Notes: generated from the sequence alone by a model not told the origin. A stretch of DNA of 64,000 nt from Microgenomates group bacterium Gr01-1014_5 (GCA_007376395.1 VMGE01000006.1:2812-66811); one strand, 5' to 3'. Counted from the first letter of the stretch, positions 2,495 to 63,247 are shown. Translations and numbers: made by a program.

Positions 2495-3184
2495 TTATTT
2501 AAACCCTTCTGCCAATTCTAGCACTTTAGCTTTAATATCTTCTGCGTGAATTATTGCCGATGATAGTGCAATCCCGACAGCCCCGTACTCCACACAACTT
2601 ACCGCATCCTCCTTATCCTTAATACCTGCGCCTACTATTAATGGTATACCTTGGGATTTCAATCGATCCGCCGCCTCTTTGATTGATTTGGGTTTTGATT
2701 TGGCAACAGAAGTGTCAGGTGATCCAATTAATTCCGGCGGCTCGTAAGCGATATAAGTCGGAATAATTTTCGGTTCTAAAATTTTATCGATCTCGTCAAT
2801 CGAAGAAGCAAAAACTAAGGTTTTTAATTCGTATTCGTTGCACTGGTTGATAACTTTGGAGAGAAGTGTATATCCGTCGTATTTGTGCTCTGAATGGTTT
2901 AAAAATACGCCAGAAATTCCGCTTGCCCCGCGAAGCTTTAGCGAAGTGGGGTGCCATTCTTTTAAAGTTTCCACCGGGCTTTTACCCGTTCCCCCGTTAA
3001 AATCTGCGTGTTGAGCCCAAATCTCGCCATCCCAAAATTCCCGGCACATCCAGATATCTAAGTCATGCGGCACGGGAATAATCGGCACGCGGGTCTCTTT
3101 TTGTGCCAGTGCAAGCTCTTTTACCAACTTTTCAGCATTTGCCCCTGTGGCGCGTACAGAGCTTTTGAAGTTAACAAATATCAT
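2495..3184 (-). CDS. tpiA: triosephosphate isomerase, archaeal-type short form
   Basis: 229 aa. LNHSEHK and IAYEPPELIGS resemble archaeal TIM (NHSE / VEPPELIGTG) rather than bacterial GHSERR / AYEPVWAIGTG. It closes the gap-pgk-tpi block. Confidence 0.7.
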   Translation of the reverse strand: MIFVNFKSSVRATGANAEKLVKELALAQKETRVPIIPVPHDLDIWMCREFWDGEIWAQHADFNGGTGKSPVETLKEWHPTSLKLRGASGISGVFLNHSEHKYDGYTLLSKVINQCNEYELKTLVFASSIDEIDKILEPKIIPTYIAYEPPELIGSPDTSVAKSKPKSIKEAADRLKSQGIPLIVGAGIKDKEDAVSCVEYGAVGIALSSAIIHAEDIKAKVLELAEGFK

Positions 3185-3223
3185 GATTAAGGATAAGTAG
3201 TCAGTTGTGGGTAGTGAGAAATA

Positions 3224-3598
3224 TCACTTCCAACTTTCTCCTAAACGATAAAGTTGTTTGCCCGCAATTTCATACTCCTCTACTAGATTACCACAAATTG
3301 ACACATTTATGAGCTTGGGGTAGAGATCGCGAATGAGTAAAAGGTGAACAACAGATTCATTGCATTCCCCCACCGCGTCGCGAAGATACTTACGCCATTC
3401 TTTCGCAGACTGCCTTCTGGCATACCCCTCGGCTATTAAAGCTGGTGGTGATTTGGTTGAACGATTGAGTTGATCTCTTAATCCGTACTTTTCTTGTACG
3501 GGCAATTTAGGGAGTATTTCTTTGTGAACAGCAAGAGCCAGCCTGTAAAGACGCTTGTAAACGTCAAGATCTCTAAAACTTACAATTTTTAGACCCAT
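3224..3598 (-). CDS. four-helix-bundle protein (TIGR02436-like)
   Basis: 124 aa with the motif ...PALIAEGYARRQ...; paralog of 507..860. Confidence 0.6.
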   Translation of the reverse strand: MGLKIVSFRDLDVYKRLYRLALAVHKEILPKLPVQEKYGLRDQLNRSTKSPPALIAEGYARRQSAKEWRKYLRDAVGECNESVVHLLLIRDLYPKLINVSICGNLVEEYEIAGKQLYRLGESWK

Positions 3599-7443: not shown

Positions 7444-8118
7444 ATGGGTTATTATGGAAGACTAGAAGAGAAATTAAAAGCTCAAAAACTTCGAAAACAA
7501 GGACTTTCTTATGGTGAAATTATGCTTCAACTCCCAGTTTCCAAGAGCAGTCTAAGTGACTGGTGTAAGGAGATTCCACTTACAAAAAAGCAAGAACTCA
7601 GACTTCTCCGTTTGAAGTCACTGGGACAAAGAAAAGGTTCAATCATAGCCGCACAAAATAAAAGGCGCTTTAGAATTTGTAGAACAAAAGAGATTTTCAA
7701 AATGGCAAAACAAGAGTTAGGCAGGATTAGTTATAGAGATAAATTTATCGCAGGAATTGCTCTCTACTCTGGCGAGGGAAACAAAACTGACGGTCAAGGC
7801 GGATTTGCAAATTCGGATCCTAAATTAATTAATTTTATGATGAAATGGTTTCAAAGATATTGCAATATCCCAATGTCAAAATTCAGGGGTTCAATTTGGT
7901 TACATGAAGGCTTGAACGAAAAACAATCTAAACAGTATTGGTCAGACCTCACAGGAATACCGATCAACCAGTTCTATAAAACTTATATTGCTAAAAATAA
8001 GATAGGGAGTAGAAAAATCAGGAAGAATATTCACAAGTTTGGAGTGTTTTCAATTAACTTTTTGGACTCACAACAGCAGAGGAGAATAATAGGCTTAATC
8101 TCTGGAGTTGTTCGTTGA
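7444..8118 (+). CDS. HTH-domain protein with possible degenerate LAGLIDADG homing-endonuclease-like core
   Basis: N-terminal HTH (LRKQGLSYGEIMLQLPVSKSSLSDWCK) and a FIAGIALYSGEGNK segment resembling LAGLIDADG. It sits immediately 5' of the intron-containing tRNA. Confidence 0.35.
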   Translation: MGYYGRLEEKLKAQKLRKQGLSYGEIMLQLPVSKSSLSDWCKEIPLTKKQELRLLRLKSLGQRKGSIIAAQNKRRFRICRTKEIFKMAKQELGRISYRDKFIAGIALYSGEGNKTDGQGGFANSDPKLINFMMKWFQRYCNIPMSKFRGSIWLHEGLNEKQSKQYWSDLTGIPINQFYKTYIAKNKIGSRKIRKNIHKFGVFSINFLDSQQQRRIIGLISGVVR

Positions 8119-8148
8119 AGAATGGTATAATTGTGCGTACTTTAATAA

Positions 8149-8418
8149 TCCCCTGTAGCTCAGCGGTAGAGCAGGAAACTGTGTTAGCAGCTCTCGATAG
8201 AAATGTCGGGATGAAAAGTGGGTGAATTCAGGGAACGGTCGCCTGAGGCGACTAATCCTGAGCCAAGTCCTGAGAGAAATCGAAGGAAAGGTGCAGAGAC
8301 TAGGTGATTACACCCTCGAGCGCCCACCACCTAAATCCTGAGTAAAACCGAAGGACAAGGTGATGAGATAGTCCAAAAAGTAATTTCAAGGTCGTAGGTT
8401 CGAATCCTACCGGGGGAG
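8149..8418 (+). tRNA. tRNA-Asn(GUU) interrupted by a group I intron. Exons are 8149..8182 and 8381..8418, and the intron lies after anticodon position 35.
   Basis: The spliced sequence UCCCCUGUAGCUCAGCGGUAGAGCAGGAAACUGU|UAAUUUCAAGGUCGUAGGUUCGAAUCCUACCGGGGGAG folds as a cloverleaf. It closely matches bacterial tRNA-Asn, including discriminator G. Confidence 0.7.
8183..8380 (+). ncRNA. group I self-splicing intron, subgroup IC3-like (198 nt)
   Basis: The 5' exon ends in U, forming a U.G pair with the internal guide GCAG at 8187-8190, and the intron ends in G. The internal GGUGCAGAGACUAG...CCCACCUAA and GAGCCAAG strings match conserved P7/P3 regions of the Azoarcus tRNA-Ile and cyanobacterial tRNA IC3 introns. 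Confidence 0.65.
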
Positions 8419-8472
8419 CAATGATATTTTGCAGGAAAAATGAAGATAACCTTCTAATATACAAAAAAATAA

Positions 8473-13155: not shown

Positions 13156-16100
13156 ATGAAAGCCAGCTGTAAAAAAGTTGTGCTGAAGAGCATAACCAGC
13201 CTGTTTTGTTTTCTTCTTACCTTTTTGGTATTACTTTCTCCGTCTCAAATATCTGCTGCTGAGCGCAGTTCTTACTACGATTGGGGTCCTTATTACAACC
13301 AAACCAAAGTTTTGGGGGTTACTTTCTCTTCTTTGGAAGAATTGCCAAAAATCGAGATCCCGGCAAATATTTCCCCGCCCCCCGCAACCGGAATTCTTCC
13401 AGGCAGTCCTTTCCACTTTTTAGAAACTCTGACGGAAAACGCACAGCTTTCCTTTATTTTTGACCCGGTAAAAAAAGAGGAGTTTCGCCTTACACTCGCC
13501 TCCGAGCGTTTGTCCGAAGCAAAAACTTTAGTTGAGCAGGGAAACTACCAAGCAGCAGAATCTGCTGCCGCAGAGTACAGAAACGCCATGAATATAGTTT
13601 CCGACAATCTGCGCGCACTCTCCGCACAAAACAATCCCCAAGCAGACGCTCTGGCCGAGAATGTAGGAAAACTCTCCGCGGATCACGCTGTCGTGGCGCA
13701 AAGCGCCGCCCTTTCCTCTCCGTCAGCCGCCAATACAACCTGGAACCAACTTTTAACTGCTTCGGAAAAAGCCATGGACTCATCCGCTGAAACAAGCGGC
13801 CAGCCGGCAATTCCCGAAGAATTGTCGGTTAGTCTTCAAGAACTTAAAAACGCCGGCCTCATCACTCCTGAGCAAAGCGATAAACTCTATTCTCTCACCT
13901 CAAGAAGCCAAGTACGCGCAGAAATTGATAAACTTACTGCCGCTGGTACGTTTCCTCAGGCAGAAGCGGCAAAACTCGATACTGCAGTAGCTGTCAACTA
14001 TCCCGATATTTACAACCAAGCGCTATCAGTGCTTAAGTTTGCCGAACTGCGTTCATACCAAACACTGCCTCCGCCCTCAGTTGATATCTTAAAAGAGATT
14101 GAGGAATGGCAAGCGCAAAAAGGTGATTTACCACCACCTGCTGAAATAAAGCCGTACCTTTATCACGCCAGAGCTTCAGAACTTGCTCAAAGTATAGACT
14201 TTGCTCCTTTTTCTGCCGACCAGCAAACAGAAGTAGCTAAATTCTATCCTGAAGCTGTTTCCCAAAACCCAACCTATACTCCTCCTCCTTCACCCTCGCC
14301 TTTGCCAAGCCCTGAGCCGTCCCCCACCCCTACAGAACAAACTGCTCCGGAAACGGCTTCGCCATCAGAACCCACCACGCCGTCTACTCAGCCATATCTT
14401 GCCGATTACAACGGCCCTTTGCCAGGAAGTCCGGCTTACTTTTTCAAACAAATTGGTGAGGGGGCAGGACTGTTTACTGCGGCCTTTGATCCGGCTAGGC
14501 GCATGGAGCTGTCTATGCAATTTGCAGAAGAACGCTTAAAAGAAGCCAATGCGCTTGCACTCGCGACCGGCCGTGAAAAAGACTACCAAAACACACTCGA
14601 AAGATATAAAGATTCTCTAGAAGGTATCACGCAAAATCTTAGGGATTATCAGGGAAGTGAAGAAACAAGAAGAGATTTGGCGGGAAAATTCGAAGCAGAG
14701 GCCGCCCGGCATAACGTTATCTTCGAAAAAGGTTTACTGCCGCCGGTTTCCGAAAACACAGAGGTCATGCCAGCTGTTGTTGCTGTAACCCAAAACGCCA
14801 TGGACGCTTCTGCCGACGCCCTCGACAAACCGGCAATTCCGCTTTCTTTAGTAGCTAGACTCCAAGACTTAAAAGCGCAGGGACAGCTTCTTCCAGAGGA
14901 GGTTGACAATATAGTCCAATCTCAATCGCGTGAAGAAGTACGCGAAAAAATAAGAGAGCTGGTTAAACTCGAGACATTTCCTCCGGCTGATGCTAAAAAG
15001 CTCGATGAGGCACAAGCTATCGTTACACCGCACGACTACAACCAATTAGTTGAGGTCAAAAAGGTTGAGGAGTTACAAAGACTGCGTGCCGCCCAGGCTG
15101 AATTTGCCCAAACCGCAACTCTTCGTCAAACAAACGCCAATTACGAAACCCGTATTGAGTTTTTAACTAAGTCTATTGACCCCTCGCTTATTAAAGCAGA
15201 AGATTTGGCAGGCCGCGAAGGGTTGTTGGCCACCTATCAAGACCTCCTTTCGAAAAGCGGAGAAAGACCTATTAATGCAGGTCAATTTGTCGAGGCAGAA
15301 AAAACTACTTCAGAGGAAAAGAATACCGCCATCCGCCCGGTTGACGCCGTCTTTTCAACCTGTCCTGTAGGGGCAATTTTTAAACAATTCGAAGGTTGCG
15401 TCTGGGAAGCAAACGGCAGCAAAATCAACAACTATGAACAATATAAATGCAGTACCTCAAAAGAATATTGGTCGTTTTCCCAAAACAAATGCGTACTTTA
15501 TACTCCTGGCGCAGAAGCTCGTGATACTCAGCCAGTTTGTCCAATTGGCTATGCCTGGGCTTGGGAGTCGCAAAACTGCCAAGTCTCAAACACTCCCGTG
15601 CCAACGCCGCCTCCCGGAGTATTGCCTATTGGAGACCTTCCTGAGAGCGAAAAAGAAAATTTCTGTCCTGCCGGCGCGTCATATCAGGCAGGGAAAGGCT
15701 GTCTTTGGGATAACAGCCAAAAATCGGTTTACGATCCGGCTCAGTACCGCTGCACCCCGGGAGCTTACTATTCTTTCTCTGAGTTTAAATGCGTAGAAAA
15801 CCCTGATCCAAGCCAACCCTATCCTAAAAACACTCAACCTGCCTGTTCTGAAGGAAGCGCTTGGAGTTGGACTGACGGCCGCTGTCTTGAGGTTCGTTCC
15901 TACACACCCGTTTCAGACGCCGCGTCAAAACTCCAAGTTCCACAACCAAGCTTTGCCGGACCGGACAGTCCGCTTTATGGCTTAAAAAGGGCTTTTGAAG
16001 GAATACAAACCTTTACCGCGTTCACCACGCAAGCCAGACAAGAAGTTAGACTTGCCCACGCCAAAGAACGTTTTGCTGAAGCCTACCAAGAACTTGAAGC

Positions 16101-18420
16101 AAACGACGAAGAGGGTTTCAAAGAATCGTTAAGCCTCTACACGGGCGAGATGCAGCAGGTTTACAACGACTTGGCTTCAGCAAACTTTAACGACGAGGCG
16201 AGAAAACAACTGGGTGAAGCCCTTGAAACCCAAGCTCTTGAACAAAACTTACTTCTACAGAAAGTAAGTGTCTTTGCTTCCGCAGACCTGGCAACGCCAA
16301 TTTCTGCGGCAGTCTCGGTAACCGTCCAGGGTGTCGACCGCGCAGCAGATTTGCAAGGTCAGCCAGCCATACCCGAGGAAATAAAAACTAAAATAGAAGC
16401 CTTACCTGCCGACATGATTTCCGACGAAGACAAACAAAAACTTCTCGCCACTAACAATAGAGTTAAAGCCAGATTGGAAATTAATTCACTAGTCGGCCAA
16501 GGTTTCTTAACCAACCAAGATACGGCACTTTTAGACGAGAGTCTTACCAACTCTGACCCTGCCGGCACGGCTAAACTTGACGAATTAAAAAAGCTGGACG
16601 AAATAGTAGACTTGACAAAACTTACAGGCGAAATAGACAAAACAGTTGAGAAGAATGAAAATATTGCCCAAAAACTGGAAGAATTTAGGCAATCATTCAC
16701 TCCCGGTCAAGAAATACCCGGAGAGATTAGGCCTTACGTCAGGCTAACCAGAATTGAAGAGATAACTCAAACAATCAGGCCCGACATTGTGCGCACAGAA
16801 GATTTTGGCAACCGCCGCGATCTACAGCTTGCCGTGGCAACGCTGAAAGAAGAGTTTAAGCCCACCCGCGAAACCGTAGATCGACTTGAGCAGTACAGAA
16901 GAAATAATCCCGGAAGGCCGCTGCCTTTTGACCTGGCGCGAGCAGAAGCCTTCTCCCGAGGTCTTGGCGTCAGAAACGAAGCAGGACCTTGCTATCTTCC
17001 CTCTCCGCCGTTTGCACCCAACACACCTTGCCCTGCCCCAGGCTCTGCAATACCAATTTTCTCTTACGATAACATCGCTTTTGGCTCATCAGCTTTTGGG
17101 ACAAATACAAACATTACTAACGACGCTCAAGGAAAACCTTTGGTTTATGGCGACGGGCCCAAACCCGTAGAGGCTGGGGTTTGTCCTGACAACTACCATT
17201 GGATGTACGACAATGGCGGTTGGTGTATGAGCAGCTCTGGAAGTTATGGAGGTTCGACAACTTCCTATGGTAGCCCATCGGTAACGACTCCGGGTTACAC
17301 CCCTTACACGTCGTATTACTCTCCCCCAGGCGCGCCGCCTGCCAGCTATGGATACCAAGGCCCAGGAAATTACTCGAACAACTACTACTCAACAACGGGT
17401 TCTCCGTATACCCCACCGACCTATTACGGAACTGCGCCGACAACTTATACCACCAATCCACCCCCGGGAACTGTCCCCGGATCAGGACCAGCGCCTTCCA
17501 CGGGCGGAGAATGTCCCTCTGGCTTTCATTGGATGCCGCCAAGTTATAATCAGGGAGGTTGGTGTATGTCTAACGGGGGTACATACACACCCGGTTATCA
17601 ATATGGAGGTGGAGGAGCACAAGTTAGTCCCGGTACACAATGTCCCAAGGGTACATATTGGAATAGCTACTCTAGTTCATGTCAATCGCCAACCAGCCCC
17701 ACATACCCCGGCGGCTCAGGCAATTGCCCACCCGGACAATATTGGACAGGAAGTTCTACAGGAGGAGGCTCGTGTGTTACTTCCGATACTTGGCCGTCAC
17801 CAAATCTCACAAGAGAAAGTTGTGGGCCAGGGTACTATTGGAGTGGGAATGCGTGTTACCCCAATTATCCGGGTAGTGGCGGTGGCAGTACGAGCTCTTG
17901 TACCTACCCGTCGGGCGGTTGCGGCTCAGGCTATTTTGATTATGGCTCTTGCTCCTGTAAAGCATCTTCATCCCAAGGATGTTATAACGTATCTGCCTCC
18001 AGTTGCCCGAGCGGATGGTATTTTGATTCGGCTGCTTGTACTTGCCGTCAGTCGTCAACATCAACCCCTGGTTCTGGTGGGGGAACTACCTCTGGATCAT
18101 GTCCTTCTGGATCTCATTGGATGAGTGATAATGGTGGCTATTGCATGTCTGATGCTGCTCGAGACGGGTCAACATCAGGAGGCTCCACCACCACTGGTGG
18201 TTCTACCTCAAGTGGTTCTTGTCCTTCAGGGTATCATTGGATGTCTGACAGCGGCGGATGGTGTATGTCAGACAACACAAGCGGGGGTGGAAGCACTTCC
18301 ACCTATACTCCACCCCCTACTACAACCTCGACCGAACCGACTCCGGCTCCAACCACAACAGAGCCTGCTCCAGCTCCTGCACCTACCGAACCTGCTCCCG
18401 CACCAACCACTTCCCCATGA
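13156..18420 (+). CDS. giant secreted/surface protein (1754 aa) with a signal peptide, three tandem ~290-aa repeats, Cys-rich modules and a Gly/Ser/Thr/Tyr low-complexity region
   Basis: Signal peptide ...SPSQISAAE. Three diverged repeats each begin (L)PGSP.Y(F/G) and contain QPAIPEE. Four copies of CP(S/D)G.HWM.D.GGWCMS and related CxxGxYW..C modules follow. C-terminal TEPAPAP tail. Confidence 0.75.
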   Translation: MKASCKKVVLKSITSLFCFLLTFLVLLSPSQISAAERSSYYDWGPYYNQTKVLGVTFSSLEELPKIEIPANISPPPATGILPGSPFHFLETLTENAQLSFIFDPVKKEEFRLTLASERLSEAKTLVEQGNYQAAESAAAEYRNAMNIVSDNLRALSAQNNPQADALAENVGKLSADHAVVAQSAALSSPSAANTTWNQLLTASEKAMDSSAETSGQPAIPEELSVSLQELKNAGLITPEQSDKLYSLTSRSQVRAEIDKLTAAGTFPQAEAAKLDTAVAVNYPDIYNQALSVLKFAELRSYQTLPPPSVDILKEIEEWQAQKGDLPPPAEIKPYLYHARASELAQSIDFAPFSADQQTEVAKFYPEAVSQNPTYTPPPSPSPLPSPEPSPTPTEQTAPETASPSEPTTPSTQPYLADYNGPLPGSPAYFFKQIGEGAGLFTAAFDPARRMELSMQFAEERLKEANALALATGREKDYQNTLERYKDSLEGITQNLRDYQGSEETRRDLAGKFEAEAARHNVIFEKGLLPPVSENTEVMPAVVAVTQNAMDASADALDKPAIPLSLVARLQDLKAQGQLLPEEVDNIVQSQSREEVREKIRELVKLETFPPADAKKLDEAQAIVTPHDYNQLVEVKKVEELQRLRAAQAEFAQTATLRQTNANYETRIEFLTKSIDPSLIKAEDLAGREGLLATYQDLLSKSGERPINAGQFVEAEKTTSEEKNTAIRPVDAVFSTCPVGAIFKQFEGCVWEANGSKINNYEQYKCSTSKEYWSFSQNKCVLYTPGAEARDTQPVCPIGYAWAWESQNCQVSNTPVPTPPPGVLPIGDLPESEKENFCPAGASYQAGKGCLWDNSQKSVYDPAQYRCTPGAYYSFSEFKCVENPDPSQPYPKNTQPACSEGSAWSWTDGRCLEVRSYTPVSDAASKLQVPQPSFAGPDSPLYGLKRAFEGIQTFTAFTTQARQEVRLAHAKERFAEAYQELEANDEEGFKESLSLYTGEMQQVYNDLASANFNDEARKQLGEALETQALEQNLLLQKVSVFASADLATPISAAVSVTVQGVDRAADLQGQPAIPEEIKTKIEALPADMISDEDKQKLLATNNRVKARLEINSLVGQGFLTNQDTALLDESLTNSDPAGTAKLDELKKLDEIVDLTKLTGEIDKTVEKNENIAQKLEEFRQSFTPGQEIPGEIRPYVRLTRIEEITQTIRPDIVRTEDFGNRRDLQLAVATLKEEFKPTRETVDRLEQYRRNNPGRPLPFDLARAEAFSRGLGVRNEAGPCYLPSPPFAPNTPCPAPGSAIPIFSYDNIAFGSSAFGTNTNITNDAQGKPLVYGDGPKPVEAGVCPDNYHWMYDNGGWCMSSSGSYGGSTTSYGSPSVTTPGYTPYTSYYSPPGAPPASYGYQGPGNYSNNYYSTTGSPYTPPTYYGTAPTTYTTNPPPGTVPGSGPAPSTGGECPSGFHWMPPSYNQGGWCMSNGGTYTPGYQYGGGGAQVSPGTQCPKGTYWNSYSSSCQSPTSPTYPGGSGNCPPGQYWTGSSTGGGSCVTSDTWPSPNLTRESCGPGYYWSGNACYPNYPGSGGGSTSSCTYPSGGCGSGYFDYGSCSCKASSSQGCYNVSASSCPSGWYFDSAACTCRQSSTSTPGSGGGTTSGSCPSGSHWMSDNGGYCMSDAARDGSTSGGSTTTGGSTSSGSCPSGYHWMSDSGGWCMSDNTSGGGSTSTYTPPPTTTSTEPTPAPTTTEPAPAPAPTEPAPAPTTSP

Positions 18421-19438: not shown

Positions 19439-20000
19439 TAAGAGGCCATCTTCAACCACGTCCCTAGATTAGTTTCCCAACCACGCCACCTTAAGGTAAC
19501 AGTTCGGAATACAGGTTTTTGTAATTAGTAGTATACCATGATTCATCTGGGTACACAAATATAATCCGAAACCTTATGCTCAAGAGATATAAAAAGTTAT
19601 AGTTGACAAGTCTAATCTGAGAGATTATTATCAATTTCGATGTTAAATATTACTGTTAGTCGCGACGGGGATATCCATACGGTGAAAATAAACAAGTTTG
19701 TTACTTACGTAATAAACCGTTAATTAAGTTCTTTTTCCTCATATAGATCTTTCCCGAATTTAAACTGCTACTAACTTATTGTGGGTGTCTCTTATCAGCT
19801 GAAGGAGATTAAATCCAGTAATGGTAAGCGTCGGTAACGCGAGGTTGCGTAAAACATTATGGTATGTACCGAGAAACACAGACCATATAACAACCAGCCC
19901 ACAATTAACATCACTTAACGTCTTTCTACTGCAACTTCATGCTCGAATACTACTCCACTCTCGTCAATCGCTAGCCAAAATCCTTCAAAGGGCGAAGATT

Positions 20001-23367: not shown

Positions 23368-24534
23368 ATGCGCAGAAATTTTTCCCAAAGACGCAACAGA
23401 AGATGGTTTGGCTCCCGGGTTAGTTCCCGGCCTGCTTCCTCTGCCTCCCGCTATGTAAAGAAAGCAGAAAGCCAGGCCCCGGAAGATGCCTATGCGGCAG
23501 TCAACCAATTTAGCGATTTTGCAATTGCCGAGCAAATAAAAAAGAATATCGCAAAACGAGGCTATACAACCCCTACTCCCATTCAAGACCAAATCATTCC
23601 GCACATTTTGGAAGGACGGGATGTGGTGGGTATTGCCAACACCGGAACCGGCAAAACAGCCGCTTTTTTAATTCCTCTCTTGAATAAAATTCTAACCGAC
23701 CGCACACAAAAAGCCCTTATCGTCGTCCCAACCCGGGAGCTTGCGATGCAAATCGAAGACGAGATGCGCGCTTTTTCCGAATTTTTAAATATCGGCTGTG
23801 TCCTTTGTATCGGCGGAGCAAGCATAAACCGTCAAATCTCAGCTCTCAGAAGTCAAACCAATATCGTTATTGGTACTCCCGGCAGGCTCATTGATTTGAC
23901 GCGCAGACGTTTATTAAACCTTAATTTGTTTCAGAATATCATTTTAGACGAGGTCGACCGTATGGTTGATATCGGTTTTATAAAAGACGTTAAGTACCTC
24001 ATTTCCCTCTTACCGGACAATAGGCAATCTTTGTTTTTCTCAGCCACGGTATCTGGCGAAATCCAGGGTATAATCAACTCGTTTTCAAGAGAACCTGTGA
24101 TTGTCTCCGTAAAAACAGCTGAAACTGCACAAAATGTTGAGCAGGATGTAATTTTCGTGACCAGCAAAGAAGAGAAACTGACTAAATTAAACAACATGTT
24201 ACACCAAGAAGAATTTAAGAAAGTTATAATTTTCGGCAGAACCAAATGGACAGTAGAACGACTGGCGCGGACTCTGCAGGATTTTGGTTTTCAGGTAGAG
24301 TCAATTCACGGCAATAAAACCCAGAGCCAGCGTCTAAGAGCGCTTTCCATGTTCAAGCAAGACCGTTTACAGGTGTTGGTAGCCACCGACATCGCCGCCC
24401 GAGGATTGGATATAGATAATATTACCCATGTTATTAATTTCGATGAACCCACAAACTATACTGATTATGTTCACAGAATCGGCAGAACAGGCAGGGCAAA
24501 TAAAACAGGAAAAGCCTTAACTTTTGTATCGTAA
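23368..24534 (+). CDS. DEAD-box ATP-dependent RNA helicase (motif II variant DEVD)
   Basis: Q-motif TPTPIQ, Walker A ANTGTGKT, PTRELA, DEVD, SAT, HRIGRTGR. It has a basic N-terminal extension. Confidence 0.85.
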   Translation: MRRNFSQRRNRRWFGSRVSSRPASSASRYVKKAESQAPEDAYAAVNQFSDFAIAEQIKKNIAKRGYTTPTPIQDQIIPHILEGRDVVGIANTGTGKTAAFLIPLLNKILTDRTQKALIVVPTRELAMQIEDEMRAFSEFLNIGCVLCIGGASINRQISALRSQTNIVIGTPGRLIDLTRRRLLNLNLFQNIILDEVDRMVDIGFIKDVKYLISLLPDNRQSLFFSATVSGEIQGIINSFSREPVIVSVKTAETAQNVEQDVIFVTSKEEKLTKLNNMLHQEEFKKVIIFGRTKWTVERLARTLQDFGFQVESIHGNKTQSQRLRALSMFKQDRLQVLVATDIAARGLDIDNITHVINFDEPTNYTDYVHRIGRTGRANKTGKALTFVS

Positions 24535-35299: not shown

Positions 35300-36019
35300 A
35301 TGGATATTCTGCCTGCCCAGGAGTTTCCCGAAATTACAAGCCGCTTTAGTCGGAAAAAACTTCTTCTTGTCTTTTTCATTATTATCTTTCTCGTAATCGG
35401 TATTTTTATCGTTGCGCCATTTATTGCCGAACCGACTTCTCCGCCAAAAGAAATTTTTATTACCAATATTACCGACGGACAAGCGACAATAACTTGGTCT
35501 ACAGATAAACCGACAAAAGGAACGGTTAAGATTCAAAAGGATATTTATAAAGACGATGGAGATAAAAACAAAAAAAGCCAGGGGTTTTATGCCACACACC
35601 TTGTAACAATCGGCGCCTTGCGACCTGCCACTTCGTATAATTACGAGATTTATCAAGGCTGGAGAAAAGTTTCTGAGGGTTCGTTTACAACAGCAATTAT
35701 TTTAAACTCAATTAACAACCCCAACCCTGTCTATGGCCGCGTCATTGACTCATCAAACAGACCGCAAGTCGGAGCAATTGTCTATTTGACTGCAAAAAAT
35801 CAAAACGGAGAATCAGCGCTTTACTCGACTTTGACCAACAACGAGGGACGTTGGCAAATAGATCTAGCCAACTTTCGCACCCGTGATCTAAAAGCTCCGT
35901 TTAATTTAAACACTGAGACAGTTCAAGAAGTGGTTGTGCAAACAGGATTCCGCGGCAAGTTTAAAGCCGCGACAGATATGGATAACGATCAACCCTGGCC
36001 GGATATTATTGTAAATTGA
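35300..36019 (+). CDS. membrane-anchored FN3-like domain protein (paralog of 40278..41501)
   Basis: TM anchor, then ITNITDGQATITWSTDKPTKG (fibronectin-III/purple-acid-phosphatase N-terminal-like), YGRVIDSSNRPQVGAIVYL, NNEGRWQIDLANFR, MDNDQPWPDIIV. Confidence 0.5.
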   Translation: MDILPAQEFPEITSRFSRKKLLLVFFIIIFLVIGIFIVAPFIAEPTSPPKEIFITNITDGQATITWSTDKPTKGTVKIQKDIYKDDGDKNKKSQGFYATHLVTIGALRPATSYNYEIYQGWRKVSEGSFTTAIILNSINNPNPVYGRVIDSSNRPQVGAIVYLTAKNQNGESALYSTLTNNEGRWQIDLANFRTRDLKAPFNLNTETVQEVVVQTGFRGKFKAATDMDNDQPWPDIIVN

Positions 36020-36021
36020 TT

Positions 36022-39000
36022 ATGCAAAATTTTTCCAAAAACGTTTTTGTCCAACTTGTAAATTTGCTTCTAATTTTTAATGTTGTTTTTTCTTCTTTAG
36101 CGCCATCCTTAGTCTATGCGCAAAACACAGGAGAGTATGACGGAGGAGGAAATGCCGGAGATGACGGCGGAGGAGACAGTGGAGACGAAGGAGATTCTGG
36201 ATCAGATGAGGGTAACACAGGTGACGGAGGAGACGTAGACAACGGAGCGGCAGATGCCGAAACCGGCAACAGTGGAGTGGAGCAAGAAGGAAATCTCGGC
36301 AGCTCAGGGGACGAGGGCAACACCGGATCTGAAGGAAGCGGAGACGGAGGTAATACTGGTGGCGGTGGTGGTGGAGAAGGAGGAAATGCCGGAGATGAAA
36401 GTGGAAATGCAGACAGCGGCAGCTCAGGGGACAGCGGAGGCGGAGGTAATACCGGAGACAGTAGAACACCAACACCCACTCCTGTCTCAGGGGGAACAGG
36501 AAATACTGGCAGTTATGAGCCGAGGTCATACATTTCAGTAACCTACAGTTGCGGGGGGTGGGCAAACGGATGCTCAAATCGGGCCATGGATTGCCGGGTC
36601 TTCAACGGACAAATTGAATCTTGCGGAGGGTGTTACTGCATGGATGCCTCTGTTAACACCCCACCTTCTCCTTCATCTTCAGCACCTGAGGGAAATACCG
36701 GTGCAGAGCCGACACCTACACCAACTCCACCCACACCCGTGCCAACAATAAACGTTGAGGCAGAAGCACTTACCGCAACTGGCAATACCGGAACAGGGGG
36801 TAATATAGGTATAGAGCCTATCGTTCCGGTTACTTCGGATGAAACACAAAGAGCGGCAATTGCGGCGGCGCTTGCCGCAACACAGGCAACCACAATTGAC
36901 CTTATAAACCGGCAAGTCCGCGAAGCCGGTAGTGGAAACACCGGAATTGACCACACGCTTGCTTCAGTCCCAGATAATGTTGGCAATCTTGGCTCGCAAG
37001 TAGCTTCTGCAATCTTTGACCCTTTGGCAGATTTCCGATTACCAAATATTTTTAGTTCAAACTCAGATTTAACTGAAGCAGAAAGGCAAATTAACGAATT
37101 AGACGCAAGACTCGCTCAAGAGAGAGAAGAATTAAACCGCGACTTTTATAATCCCAATAACCCTTTATCTGCCCTCCGCTTGCTTGTTCCCAACGGAGAA
37201 AATAATAATGACCCCTCTGCTCTTTTTGGCCAATTTACGTCTCAAATGGGGAACGCCGGGGTTCGTGTAGAAGGCAATGTCGGAGAACCTTCTTTTAGTC
37301 TCGCGTGCCTGGACGCCGACTGTTTTCTAAGTAAGCTCGGCTCTACTCATCTCGCAACTCTACCGTTACTAGGAAACGTAACGACTGAGGGAGCAGTAGA
37401 TTTTTTTGCCAGCTCTGCACTGGAACTAAACCGGAAAAGCGCAGAAACCTCAAAAGTTCTTGGTGAAGCAAAAGACTTATATAACCAAGCAGGGGTAAGC
37501 GCGAGAATGCGAGCGTCCCAGCCAAATCCTTGCGACACAGATCCCAGCTCAACACAATGTTTAACTTTTTCAACTTTTTCACAAACTTCACCTAATTTAG
37601 CCTTAGAACTTCAAAGAGATAAAGAGCTATACCCCGACGACACCTTAACACCAGAAGAAGTCGCCGCAAGAAACGCTCTTGAAGCAAAGCTCGACGAAGC
37701 CGCTCAGATGGCTTATGACGGCGCAATAGAAACAGCCGCAATCGTAGCAATGACTTATTTTGGAGGTCCGGCTCTCAATAAAGTGGGTGGGTTCATAAAA
37801 GGCGTAGGTGGAAAACTTGTCGGATCTGCGAGTGATTTCCTACGACCAGCAGGAGGAATATTTGATGATTTAGTAACGGGAGGCCGAAGGGTTTTTGGCA
37901 CAGCAGACGATCTTCCAATGCCGGCACATGCCGTTATGCATTCCGTACAGTCAGTAGATGACTATTATGTACCGCCGTTTGCCAGATCTGTCGACCCCGA
38001 AGAAGCGCGAGAAGCGGGTATGAGAATATTTAACAGCGAGGCGCTTCACGACGACGATTTGTTAAGAGTTTCCCATTGGATCCGCAACGGTCAAGGATTG
38101 CCCGACAATGGCTTAAGCGACGATGTTGTCAATTTTGCAAAAAGAGTTTCTGACGATTTAATGTCTTCTTTCGTACCTGACAATAACGGCGGTTTTAGAC
38201 TATCACCAGTTTCAAAAATAACTGAAGCAAAAAGGGCGGTAATTAACGCTCTTGAGCACGAAGGAAATACTGGGCTAATTGTATATAGTCAACGGGCTAT
38301 TAGCGAAGATGAGTACCGCGAATTAGCCGAGCGCTCATTAGACGCAACCATAAGAAACAGACAAAATCAGGAAAAGTTGAGGGGGGCTGTGGAAGAAGCT
38401 AGAAAAATTGCGACCACGATGAACGACTCGCTTGGGGGTTCGGCAAGCGATATCGCCAGACGACAGACCGACATTGAATCTGCTTACGATTTAAGCAGGT
38501 TTCATTCAGCCTCACTTGAAAGCCGACTGGCAGGAAGTAGCGGCGAGGCAGTAGGTGGATTCTTTATTCCAAGAACCGGCCAAATATCTATAACTGAAGG
38601 AACAGGTCTATCTCCTTTGCCGACAATTGTTCACGAGTGTAGACACACTTGCGATTTTTTATCTAGCCCGCAACATTTTAATGATTTGACGCGTAGATTC
38701 GGGAAGCCAGCGGCAGTGGCACTTAACGAAGGAAGAGTTGCTAGTTTTGAAGTAGATGCATTAAAAATCAGTAAATATAATCAGAGCGCAAGTGACGCGA
38801 GTGCGGCACATACTCAAGCATTCCAACAATATAAACAAATATTTGAGGAAGGTATTGTACCAGAGCTGGCAAAAAGAGAAAACGTAACTATTGACGAGGC
38901 CCGTAAAATCACATACAGGGATCCTTCTGCTCTTGATAAAATAGACGATAAAAAAATCAATGAGATTTTAGACCAATTCGGAATCTCGAGAAATAGTCCT

Positions 39001-40272
39001 CCTGAAAAAGAAACGAATAAATTAATAAAGGTGGGAATTGCAACAGCCGGAACAATAACAGCGGTAATCTCTCTTGCGGCAGGGGCAGATCTTTACTTAA
39101 GCAAAACGGGTACTTCACAAGCCACTACCCCAACACCGGTTCCGACACAGAGGCCTGACTTATTAAATTTATTCAACTTTACTAAGAAGGCGTTCGCTCA
39201 AGAGGAATCTAGCAATTCTATATCCACACAACAGCCTTTTGACCTTGCTGTTAAAAAAGAGCTTGTAAAACACATAATAAACACCACTGGTAAAGTTGGC
39301 TTTGAAGATGTCGCTCAAGTTTTAGAGGCAGATACGCTGGAACCTAGGTTTAACAGAATAAGTGAAGGGTATAAATTTACCACTGGAAGCGCCGGCGTTT
39401 CTTGGGGATTGGTTGACAAAGACTTATACTCTGTTGTTCTTGAAGGAATACCCGGCATCGACATACAAACTCCTTTGATTGTTGATGCCAAAAACAATTC
39501 TACTGTTTTAATCCCAATCTCGATATCTAAAGGGAGCGGAAAGGTCGAATCTAAGCCGCAAGGATCAGAAACTTCCCTAATAAAAACAGCTTATGCGCAA
39601 GAAAACGATAATGCCCTTGCAAACGGCAAAACCAAAGTGCAGGTTTTGCTTTTTCAAGACGAAAATAGGAACGGGAAATTTGACACTAGCGATGCGGTTT
39701 TGCCTTGGGCAAATCTTATCGTTAAGCTTAAAGGTTTAAATAACAAGAAGGATATATTCTTAAATCAAGGTTGGAATCTGTTTACTTTAACAAACCTTCC
39801 TTCCAGTCCTCTTACTGCAAACGAATTGTTGCAAGAAATTGCTAAACAGAACGGTTATGCAACGACGGTTTCTACTTTGGAAAATGGGCTTTGGAAGTCA
39901 TATGTTGTCCGGGGAGATAAAACCTACTCAGGAGAAGACTTCCCTATCGTTCCGGGCAGGGCTTACTTTGTTAAAGCACTAAAACAGTCTGTCTTTACTT
40001 ACCAGGGCCAAGAGTTTGTTGCACCTGTTGATTTAACCCTCAATGAGGGATGGAACGCTGTCGGACTGCCAAAAACTTCTCAGGAATATAAAATTTCAGA
40101 CGTTTTGTCAAAACTGGACTCGTCAGGCGCTGACGCCGCAAGCCGCTGGGAATCAGGTCTTTGGGATAGTTTTGTAACTAAAAACAAAGAAGATTACGGA
40201 GAAAACTTCCCAATTGAAACAAACCGCGGCTACATTATCCGCGTTAGAAAAAATACTGCGTTTACGCCTTAA
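36022..40272 (+). CDS. giant surface protein (about 1416 aa) with an acidic Gly/Asp/Ser-rich N-terminal region, a recurring GNTG motif, an internal HExxH motif and two C-terminal ~90-aa repeats
   Basis: Signal-like N-terminus. Nine or more (E/G)GNTG motifs. IVHECRHTCD (HExxH). An internal TM segment (VGIATAGTITAVISLAAG). The C-terminal repeats are LNQGWNLFTL...FPIVPGRAYFVKA and LNEGWNAVGL...FPIETNRGYIIRV. The track starts at TTG 36016; ATG 36022 is more likely. Confidence 0.7.
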   Translation: MQNFSKNVFVQLVNLLLIFNVVFSSLAPSLVYAQNTGEYDGGGNAGDDGGGDSGDEGDSGSDEGNTGDGGDVDNGAADAETGNSGVEQEGNLGSSGDEGNTGSEGSGDGGNTGGGGGGEGGNAGDESGNADSGSSGDSGGGGNTGDSRTPTPTPVSGGTGNTGSYEPRSYISVTYSCGGWANGCSNRAMDCRVFNGQIESCGGCYCMDASVNTPPSPSSSAPEGNTGAEPTPTPTPPTPVPTINVEAEALTATGNTGTGGNIGIEPIVPVTSDETQRAAIAAALAATQATTIDLINRQVREAGSGNTGIDHTLASVPDNVGNLGSQVASAIFDPLADFRLPNIFSSNSDLTEAERQINELDARLAQEREELNRDFYNPNNPLSALRLLVPNGENNNDPSALFGQFTSQMGNAGVRVEGNVGEPSFSLACLDADCFLSKLGSTHLATLPLLGNVTTEGAVDFFASSALELNRKSAETSKVLGEAKDLYNQAGVSARMRASQPNPCDTDPSSTQCLTFSTFSQTSPNLALELQRDKELYPDDTLTPEEVAARNALEAKLDEAAQMAYDGAIETAAIVAMTYFGGPALNKVGGFIKGVGGKLVGSASDFLRPAGGIFDDLVTGGRRVFGTADDLPMPAHAVMHSVQSVDDYYVPPFARSVDPEEAREAGMRIFNSEALHDDDLLRVSHWIRNGQGLPDNGLSDDVVNFAKRVSDDLMSSFVPDNNGGFRLSPVSKITEAKRAVINALEHEGNTGLIVYSQRAISEDEYRELAERSLDATIRNRQNQEKLRGAVEEARKIATTMNDSLGGSASDIARRQTDIESAYDLSRFHSASLESRLAGSSGEAVGGFFIPRTGQISITEGTGLSPLPTIVHECRHTCDFLSSPQHFNDLTRRFGKPAAVALNEGRVASFEVDALKISKYNQSASDASAAHTQAFQQYKQIFEEGIVPELAKRENVTIDEARKITYRDPSALDKIDDKKINEILDQFGISRNSPPEKETNKLIKVGIATAGTITAVISLAAGADLYLSKTGTSQATTPTPVPTQRPDLLNLFNFTKKAFAQEESSNSISTQQPFDLAVKKELVKHIINTTGKVGFEDVAQVLEADTLEPRFNRISEGYKFTTGSAGVSWGLVDKDLYSVVLEGIPGIDIQTPLIVDAKNNSTVLIPISISKGSGKVESKPQGSETSLIKTAYAQENDNALANGKTKVQVLLFQDENRNGKFDTSDAVLPWANLIVKLKGLNNKKDIFLNQGWNLFTLTNLPSSPLTANELLQEIAKQNGYATTVSTLENGLWKSYVVRGDKTYSGEDFPIVPGRAYFVKALKQSVFTYQGQEFVAPVDLTLNEGWNAVGLPKTSQEYKISDVLSKLDSSGADAASRWESGLWDSFVTKNKEDYGENFPIETNRGYIIRVRKNTAFTP

Positions 40273-62143: not shown

Positions 62144-63112
62144 TTACCTTAAACCGAGGTCGTATTCAAGGTTGCACTTCAAGCAAACATTGCACCCGCC
62201 ATCTTCTGCTCCCCAGACATATTTTTCAAAGCCGCAAGAGGCGCATGCCCGCCGCGTTTTAAATTTATCGATGTTCTGCAAAGTGGCAACTCCGGGAAAA
62301 GTGTCTGATGTCATAAGATTAAGCATTTCTGAATTTAATATGCCGGGACAGTCGCGGAGCTGGTTTATCAAATGTCCTCGGGCAATTATTTCCTGCTCGA
62401 TTTTTGCTCCTACAAAAACCTGCTCATACAAGGTCGAAGCTGATATTATAGCAGTGTGATTATTGCCAGCTATTTCTCGGCCGTCTTTGAGTGCGGCCAT
62501 TTTTTCTGCAGTTAATTGAGCGATAGTTTTTTTAGTTAAAGTTAAGACTAAATCGTTAAAAGTTTTGCCCTCCGGAAGATTAAATTCAACCGGTCTGTCG
62601 TTAAACTCTTCGTCGTCTAGTGAGTTGGGAGCATCGGCAAACGCTTCGTAAACTCTTACACATTGTGTCGGAGAAAGAGGCAGGCATACAGCAACACTTT
62701 GAACTCGTACAATGCCATTTTCTTCATACTTTCGGCTTACAACTACCCGCGACCATTTATAGAAGCCATCGACCCTTGAACTTATCCAGGCGAGACACTC
62801 AGCGTCGCTAAACGCCGCCCAGGAGACGGTTTCCGTGGTTGCTGTGTTTTCATTCTGATAAACGGGGTGATTTGTGCGGTTGGTATCAGTGAGCCGAACT
62901 AATTCCTCGAGCGTTGTCCAATAAATATTTGGCTTTCTTTGAAATTCAAGAATTACAGAAGCTAAATCTTGAGCGATTACTTCTTGAGATTTTTTCCAGT
63001 TTGCGACCGGTAGCGCTAGTTCTACATTCATAGTTTCCTGCTCGGGATGGTAACTGAAGGTTATTAGTTTTCCGGCTTCTCGTCGCTTCTCTCCTCGAAG
63101 TAAACTCCTCAA
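62144..63112 (-). CDS. hypothetical protein with C-terminal C4 zinc finger
   Basis: Contains CASCGFEKYVWGAEDGGCNVCLKC. The probable start is MNVELAL at 63031. Confidence 0.4.
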   Translation of the reverse strand: MRSLLRGEKRREAGKLITFSYHPEQETMNVELALPVANWKKSQEVIAQDLASVILEFQRKPNIYWTTLEELVRLTDTNRTNHPVYQNENTATTETVSWAAFSDAECLAWISSRVDGFYKWSRVVVSRKYEENGIVRVQSVAVCLPLSPTQCVRVYEAFADAPNSLDDEEFNDRPVEFNLPEGKTFNDLVLTLTKKTIAQLTAEKMAALKDGREIAGNNHTAIISASTLYEQVFVGAKIEQEIIARGHLINQLRDCPGILNSEMLNLMTSDTFPGVATLQNIDKFKTRRACASCGFEKYVWGAEDGGCNVCLKCNLEYDLGLR

Positions 63113-63247
63113 ATTTTTGAAGAATTTATATCGAGGGCTTTAGCCCGAGATACGGTTGCGGCACAGCTCCTGAATTGCACAGGATTCCTTAATCCTCCTT
63201 CGCTTAAAGCTACGGAAGGACGTTGCATAACCTTATTCAGTCAATTT

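Follow-up and report, generated by a model that had tools for sequence, protein, structure and literature searches.

Group I introns of the tRNA genes of Patescibacteria were described by Nakagawa et al. (mSystems, January 2026, PMC13011429; preprint July 2025, 10.1101/2025.07.03.662931), who surveyed 95 complete genomes and found 22 tRNA genes with such introns, 15 of them tRNA-Asn(GUU) genes interrupted between anticodon positions 35 and 36. The tRNA introns of that survey are 184–894 nt long, and the interrupted tRNA is usually the sole copy for its anticodon. According to covariance models, 25 of the 28 introns at 35/36 belong to subgroup IA, and no Patescibacteria tRNA intron was classed as IC. 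Precise in vitro self-splicing was demonstrated for one Asn and one Asp intron, with ωG-to-C controls; the tRNA-Asn 35/36 intron of GCA_016700035.1 self-splices, and the ωG-to-C change blocks the reaction (PMC13011429). Williams (bioRxiv 2020, 10.1101/2020.01.27.920355) had raised the number of interrupted tRNA types known in bacteria from 4 to 21, among which type 'Asn.4Ug', as it is referred to in PMC13011429, is of the tRNA-Asn 35/36 kind.

The IC3 introns of Nostoc/Anabaena tRNA-Leu(UAA), cyanobacterial tRNA-fMet and Azoarcus tRNA-Ile resemble the intron analysed here in being small, bacterial, of similar size and located in the anticodon loop, and in having the same catalytic core and two-step guanosine-initiated mechanism. 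Their insertion sites (33/34, 34/35 and 36/37) are different.

The locus under study lies in a window of 64,000 nt (the whole stretch of DNA that was analysed) from Microgenomates group bacterium Gr01-1014_5 (Patescibacteria/CPR). The host was recognized by an exact match of the protein encoded at 7444–8118, which bears out the CPR-like lineage suspected in the initial annotation of this DNA. An identical 5.8-kb stretch is present in the Logan assembly of SRR8863434. The tRNA-Asn(GUU) gene occupies positions 8149–8418 of the plus strand and is interrupted after U35 by a group I intron of 198 nt, as follows.

8149–8182, plus strand: 5' exon of tRNA-Asn, 34 nt, positions 1–35 with G34 and U35 last (ARAGORN -i, joined-exon cloverleaf)
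8183–8380, plus strand: group I intron between anticodon positions 35 and 36 (Rfam RF00028, ARAGORN i(35,198), covariation)
8381–8418, plus strand: 3' exon of tRNA-Asn, from U36 to the discriminator G73 (sequence and ARAGORN)

The 5' exon ends in GGAAACUGU (...CUGU), with U35 at 8182. The intron begins with GUUAGCAGC and ends in AAAAAG, its terminal G being G8380, while the 3' exon opens with UAAUUUCAAGG (UAAUUUC) and ends with G73 at 8418. A 7-nt anticodon loop is obtained only with the boundary pair U8182/G8380. The two-base boundary shift that confuses the annotation of many relatives would leave the intron of this locus with a terminal A and is therefore impossible. Since the CCA end is not encoded in the gene (the 8416–8421 region reads ...GGAG CAA), it would need to be added post-transcriptionally; several published relatives end in GCCA.

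The search of the window with the Rfam model RF00028 (Intron_gpI), which the initial annotation had proposed as a check, returned a full-length model match at 8176–8390 of the plus strand with 80.1 bits (E-value, 9.7e-19), against a gathering score of 50 bits. When introns were allowed, ARAGORN reported tRNA-Asn(gtt) i(35,198) from the unspliced sequence; the joined exons gave a canonical 73-nt cloverleaf carrying a G27·A43 mismatch. The split after U35, the 198-nt intron and the reassembly of the two halves into tRNA-Asn were thus all confirmed. With default settings, ARAGORN missed the split gene in the whole window and called only a tRNA-Cys elsewhere. When default tRNA finders miss such a gene, tRNA-Asn is scored as absent and genome completeness is underestimated; the published Patescibacteria tRNA-Asn introns are likewise missed by standard tRNA finders, and the same point is made in PMC13011429.

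Judged from its site, host and homology, the intron is a member of the Patescibacteria tRNA-Asn 35/36 family, with which it shares the host tRNA, the insertion site, the U-1/ωG boundaries, the phylum and a homologous core (PMC13011429). The suggestion that no such intron had been reported in tRNA-Asn or in a CPR-like lineage does not hold, given the 15 introns found in 95 genomes by Nakagawa et al. and type 'Asn.4Ug' of 2020. Based on the above, the locus is very probably a functional tRNA-Asn(GUU) gene interrupted at 35/36 by a self-splicing intron of this known family.

The predicted elements of the intron, all on the plus strand, are listed below.

8179–8190, plus: P1 hairpin, exon CUGU (8179–8182) with guide GCAG (8187–8190), loop GUUA; pairs invariant in 13/13 relatives
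8183–8186, plus: P10 guide GUUA, complementary to UAAU (8381–8384) of the 3' exon
8192–8211, plus: P2, 8 bp, with GAAA tetraloop (8200–8203); MFE fold, two-sided changes in 7/8 pairs
8218–8224, plus: P3 5' strand GUGGGUG, partner at 8321–8327; 100% of cells paired, one compensatory U-A to C-G change, MFE fold
8228–8261, plus: P4–P5 domain, with P4 at 8228–8233/8256–8261 and P5 at 8237–8253; MFE fold, two-sided changes in 4/5 pairs of P5 and one in P4
8262–8292, plus: P6, base GCC/GGU, distal hairpin UCCUGAGAGAAAUCGAAGGA; Rfam alignment, MFE fold, base pairs invariant
8296–8302, plus: P7 5' strand G(A)GACUA with bulged A8297, complementary to 8369–8374; invariant 13/13
8303–8314, plus: P7.1 hairpin GGUG-AUUA-CACC, a 16-nt insertion relative to the Rfam model; MFE fold, compensatory G-C to A-U in locus L016
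8321–8327, plus: P3 3' strand CGCCCAC; covariation alignment, MFE fold
8328–8362, plus: P8, base CACCU/AAGGUG, distal hairpin UCCUGAGUAAAACCGAAGGA; MFE fold, base pairs
8363–8374, plus: J8/7 (AUGAGA, 8363–8368) and P7 3' strand UAGUCC (8369–8374); Rfam alignment to the conserved GAUAUAGUC element, invariant in the family
8375–8380, plus: 3' tail AAAAAG with ωG at 8380; sequence, tail-length comparison (6–9 nt in 13 sequences, 25–32 nt in 33)

Pairing of exon CUGU with intron GCAG through a U·G wobble, as well as the terminal G of the intron, can be read directly from the DNA, as had been noted before. The U8182·G8187 wobble marks the 5' splice site in P1, a helix that cannot be extended past 4 bp in the window (A·C at −5). 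The linker CUCGAG (8315–8320) follows P7.1, and P7.2 is absent. Between the 3' strand of P7 and the 3' splice site there is only AAAAAG, too little to accommodate P9/P9.0. The unconstrained thermodynamic fold has a free energy of −70.1 kcal/mol (z = −4.3; 0/200 shuffles as good), and this MFE fold recovers P2, P3, P4, P5, P6, P7.1 and P8. The CCUAAA/AAGG region of P8 resembles a GAAA-tetraloop receptor in sequence; the motif reads CAAGG in the window and UAUGG in most relatives. The module CCUGAG-N6-7-CGAAGG (tandem G·A/A·G flanked by C-G) occurs twice, at 8269–8286 (tip of P6) and 8337–8354 (tip of P8), and caps P5, P6 or P8 in 13/109 related introns. The module might make a tertiary contact or bind a protein.

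Splicing of the window copy would proceed as follows. Exon CUGU would pair with the guide GCAG to form P1, placing the U35·G wobble at the 5' splice site, and a free guanosine bound in P7, beside the bulged A8297, would attack after U35. The binding pair is presumably G8298-C8373, by analogy with the Tetrahymena and Azoarcus introns. The intron GUUA would then pair with UAAU of the 3' exon (P10), ωG 8380 would take the place of the free guanosine in the same pocket, and the 3'-OH of U35 would attack after G8380, which would yield a normal tRNA-Asn from the ligated exons. Both the splicing of this copy and the role of P10 are inferred; self-splicing of a homologue was demonstrated by others (PMC13011429).

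For the comparison with relatives, one genome per GTDB species was scanned for a core pattern common to the window and GCA_016700135.1 (Microgenomatia), which carries the closest published intron. The scan yielded 98 loci, 45 of which are tRNA-Asn 35/36 introns by an explicit boundary rule (CTGT before the intron, G at its end and TAA after it, a complementary anticodon stem, and joined exons checked by ARAGORN), a rule that missed four loci later shown by Rfam to carry introns. Intron calls of ARAGORN on the relatives were unreliable, with Thr, Gln, Ser and other identities given, as was also described by Nakagawa et al. (PMC13011429). Twelve of the 45 introns have the architecture of the window, i.e., the GUUAGCAGC start, a 6–9-nt tail after AGUC of the P7 3' strand, and a length of 174–198 nt. 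The other 33 have a tail of 25–32 nt, which mostly forms a hairpin with a GAAA-type loop (P9).

In a 13-sequence covariation alignment of the reduced form, 96.1% of the cells are paired in the proposed structure. The 14 pairs with two-sided changes comprise 7/8 pairs of P2, 4/5 pairs of P5 and a single pair in P3, in P4 and in P7.1. This level of covariation was not matched by any of the 500 shuffles, and sliding the 3' partners by 1–3 columns reduced the pairing to 36–49%. The catalytic-core strands (P7, J8/7, P3 and the J3/4 region) were invariant; as P7 never varies among the 13 sequences, covariation neither supports nor contradicts it. Judged by this alignment, the reduced form is a conserved, selected RNA fold and no decayed remnant.

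The opposite reading, in which the intron without P9 and P7.2 is decaying and splicing-dead and the locus is a tRNA pseudogene, is extremely improbable. It draws on the absence of two peripheral elements that published relatives have, and on small defects such as the mismatch that prevents P1 extension and the variant P8 receptor. Against it, 18 distinct sequences from many species share this architecture while keeping the core strands intact and invariant, and compensatory changes in P2, P5, P3, P4 and P7.1 are abundant, a pattern that marks selection on the fold. Moreover, a good tRNA can still be formed from the exons, and an interrupted tRNA usually has no second copy for its anticodon (PMC13011429).

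Among the relatives, four loci are titled 'uncultured Gammaproteobacteria' (L016, L040, L044, L099) and one 'Eisenbacteria' (L057). Their GC content is 0.36–0.41, and their tRNA-Asn exons match those of Patescibacteria-labelled loci exactly or almost exactly; L040 and L044 moreover code for members of the Patescibacteria protein family ORF224 treated below. On these grounds the labels are doubtful, and they are probably wrong or the contigs mis-binned.

The initial annotation had assigned the intron to the IC3 type on account of core strings taken to be conserved in the Azoarcus tRNA-Ile and cyanobacterial tRNA-Leu/fMet introns. The quoted strings are indeed present (GGUGCAGAGACUAG at 8290–8303, GAGCCAAG at 8260–8267 and CCCACCACCUAA at 8323–8334, the last of which had been quoted in a slightly compressed form), and GAGCCAAG and GGUGCAGAGACU are common to the window and the IC3 tRNA introns. 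The resemblance is therefore genuine, but its source is the common group I core, which is not diagnostic of IC3. The L2 GAAA tetraloop and the CCUAA-type P8 of the window, which we take to be features of the Azoarcus intron as well, would also speak for close kinship with these introns. A nucleotide profile of six IC3-labelled introns still gives the window 31.4 bits (E-value, 1.5e-8), and a profile of four IA-labelled introns from outside Patescibacteria scores higher, at 70.9 bits; these nhmmer-type profiles were built from sequences labelled in the table of Nakagawa et al. and serve as a proxy for subgroup covariance models.

The structural differences point in the same direction as the profiles. 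The spacer between P7 and the 3' strand of P3 is 18 nt in the window and contains the 4-bp P7.1 hairpin, in contrast to 3 nt in the IC3-labelled tRNA introns (5/6 measurable, including the Nostoc tRNA-Leu control), which have no P7.1 insert; in IA-labelled relatives it is 32–36 nt and holds both P7.1 and P7.2. Only clean cases are cited here, as the automatic measurement failed or mis-picked P3 in 4/12 reference sequences. P7.1 and P7.2 are among the elements used in subgroup assignment (PMC3984707). The window has P7.1, with one compensatory change, and lacks P7.2, which is present in GCA_016700135.1. The P9.0/P9 region of IC3 type and the 'GUCCAGACCACAA' tail, present in 5/6 IC3-labelled sequences (all but Nostoc tRNA-Leu), are not found after P7 in the window. 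In the published family, 25/28 introns at 35/36 were classed as IA with no Patescibacteria tRNA intron in IC, and the related Asn introns are labelled IA1 or IA2 in Table S5 (PMC13011429). An IC3 intron closely related to those of Azoarcus and cyanobacteria is thus very unlikely here, and the intron is best described, on sequence and predicted structure, as a reduced derivative of an IA-labelled family. Global pairwise identity was also tried as a subgroup test and gave no separation, with 74–86% of aligned columns identical even against Nostoc IC3.

The architecture of the window is not shared by any of the 15 published Patescibacteria Asn introns. These all carry a P9 hairpin in a tail of about 29 nt, and most of them a longer P7.1/P7.2 insert, whereas in the window the tail measures 6 nt, P7.2 is missing, the P1 loop has a minimal size of 4 nt and P10 is perfect. 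Block-wise alignment with GCA_016700135.1 showed two clean deletions, corresponding to P7.2 and P9. The copy studied here belongs to a reduced sub-lineage that kept P1–P8 and a short P7.1 and lost P7.2 and P9/P9.0. This architecture is beyond the published description. A literature search for natural group I introns without P9 found nothing relevant, and the loss is not claimed to be unprecedented.

The tail was further compared in a pooled set of 102 distinct tRNA-Asn 35/36 introns from the genome scan and from the ORF-selected collection described below. The sub-lineage without P9 and P7.2 comprises 18 distinct sequences from many species, with introns of 174–233 nt. In 16 of these 18 short-tail (≤11 nt) introns, a contiguous 4-bp P10 (GUUA:UAAY) occurs together with a 4-nt P1 loop; a P10 of at least 4 bp was found in only 8/84 of the P9-bearing introns. 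Being related, the 18 sequences stand for one or a few events and not for 18 independent ones, and the association between P10 and P9 may reflect a single ancestral event. Three loci (L009, L012 and L060) combine the GUUAGCAGC start with P9, an arrangement consistent with the origin of a strong P10 before the loss of P9.

P9 and P9.0 normally aid folding and 3' splice-site selection. With both lost, the choice of the 3' splice site in the reduced form probably rests, as far as the sequences indicate, on P10 and ωG alone. The sub-lineage offers a minimal natural scaffold for studying how P10 alone may define that site. Two metagenome loci (L141 and L142) have 183–184-nt introns with an 11-nt tail, a variant P7 3' strand (AAAGUC) and no P10, and from their sequences they may represent a second, independent route to P9 loss. 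As to size, the intron had been thought to be among the smallest known. A length of 198 nt is not extreme, because relatives as short as 173 nt (L176) and 174 nt (L057) occur, of which the former has P9 and the latter lacks it; relatives here are 173–198 nt, and published tRNA introns start at 184 nt.

Upstream of the interrupted gene lies an ORF of the same strand.

7444–8118, plus strand: ORF224, 224 aa, N-terminal helix-turn-helix and LAGLIDADG-like C-terminal domain; ends 30 nt before the tRNA

At least 573 proteins belong to the ORF224 family, each of them annotated as hypothetical. In the loci selected by the intron, a homologue was found in 14/98, always on the same strand and ending 95–148 nt before the intron core; 5/12 reduced-form loci have no homologue despite sufficient room. 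A second collection consisted of 80 metagenome loci (L100–L179) chosen by the ORF224 protein alone. In 63 of them an interrupted tRNA-Asn(GUU) follows 22–90 nt downstream of the ORF, and 12 end too early to tell. Four of the five that remain have an Rfam group I intron match just downstream, counted irrespective of the host tRNA, so that an intron follows in 67/68 informative loci. Homologues of 224–231 aa are encoded by L009, L020, L021, L025, L029, L031–L033, L040, L044, L051, L069 and L100–L179.

The single exception, L122, has an apparently intact ORF (2501–3157) beside an uninterrupted tRNA-Asn(GUU) (3199–3270), whose anticodon arm ACUGCCUGUUAAGCAGU also occurs, unchanged, in an interrupted allele of the set. 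This could be due to recent loss of the intron, or the protein could be one that does not cut the site.

Comparison of the outer flanks of 26 loci (325 pairs) revealed similar upstream regions in 69 pairs, similar downstream regions in 15, and both in 3. General conservation of gene order was rejected as the cause of the linkage, with both flanks alike in only 3/325 pairs. The tight linkage between ORF and intron, combined with variable outer flanks, indicates that the ORF makes up a specific module of two genes with the interrupted tRNA, a linkage that is apparently unreported.

The C-terminal domain of ORF224 contains the motif F.AGIALYAGEG.K, in which G104, Y108, E111, G112 and K114 are invariant in 27 sequences. 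The only PDB sequence match is I-DmoI, aligned motif on motif, with weak similarity (E-value, 0.26). Pfam families of helix-turn-helix domains match 26/27 members; no LAGLIDADG Pfam family matches any of the 27 at E ≤ 1, and the C-terminal domain has no Pfam family. Together with the group I intron that follows in 67/68 informative loci, these data suggest, but do not prove, that ORF224 is a free-standing homing endonuclease. In the Asn introns with endonucleases described in PMC13011429, an HNH gene is located inside the intron, whereas the candidate endonuclease of the window lies outside it. Should ORF224 prove to be a homing endonuclease, the low mobility inferred in PMC13011429 for introns without an internal endonuclease would be challenged.

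A similar arrangement is known from phages, in which an ORF-less intron is tightly linked to an adjacent gene for a DNA-binding, nuclease-like protein. The asymmetry of the linkage (nearly every ORF with an intron, only some introns with an ORF) and the variable outer flanks are alike as well. The phage pairs are found in protein-coding genes and involve other nuclease families, whereas a cellular tRNA gene of CPR is concerned here, and the assignment of the nuclease fold is weak, with ORF224 being a candidate nuclease. It is possible, although we propose it only tentatively, that ORF224 and the interrupted tRNA-Asn constitute a two-part selfish module widespread in Patescibacteria, in which the endonuclease targets uninterrupted anticodon-arm DNA and the pair spreads by collaborative homing, the intron at the present locus being of the P10-reliant form without P9. 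If so, this would be the first collaborative-homing pair in a cellular tRNA gene and would help to explain the persistence of these introns in very small genomes.

Some LAGLIDADG proteins are maturases, and ORF224 might instead be chiefly a maturase, or an RNA cofactor standing in for the missing contacts of P9, splicing of the reduced intron being protein-dependent and no DNA endonuclease being involved. The position of the ORF 22–90 nt upstream of an interrupted tRNA-Asn in 63/80 loci, with a group I intron downstream in four more, would suit this role, and the intact ORF beside the intron-less tRNA-Asn of L122 is awkward for an endonuclease that cuts intron-less alleles. The ORF is nevertheless neither specific to nor required by the reduced form, because its partners are mostly P9-bearing introns (at least 57/63) and 5/12 loci without P9 do without it. 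In addition, a published P9-bearing homologue splices without protein (PMC13011429), and the putative catalytic glutamate is invariant. A role mainly as maturase or RNA cofactor is therefore unlikely.

The 30-nt gap between the ORF224 stop codon (8116–8118) and the tRNA contains an extended −10-like sequence, TGGTATAAT, at 8123–8131. A consensus promoter scan of this gap detected no sigma-70-type site, no matching −35 element and no terminator.

Elsewhere in the window, a DEAD-box helicase gene is located at 23368–24534, and two very large ORFs were found on the plus strand, one at 13156–18420 (1754 aa, with DUF5667 domains) and the other at 36016–40272 (1418 aa, no Pfam match). Rfam also matched a DUF3800-IX RNA at 19450–19517 of the minus strand (43.9 bits; gathering score, 36.8) and, as a borderline hit, a cobalamin riboswitch at 63050–63242 of the minus strand (32.6 bits; gathering score, 31.5), which overlaps the start of an ORF at 62144–63112 that has no Pfam match.
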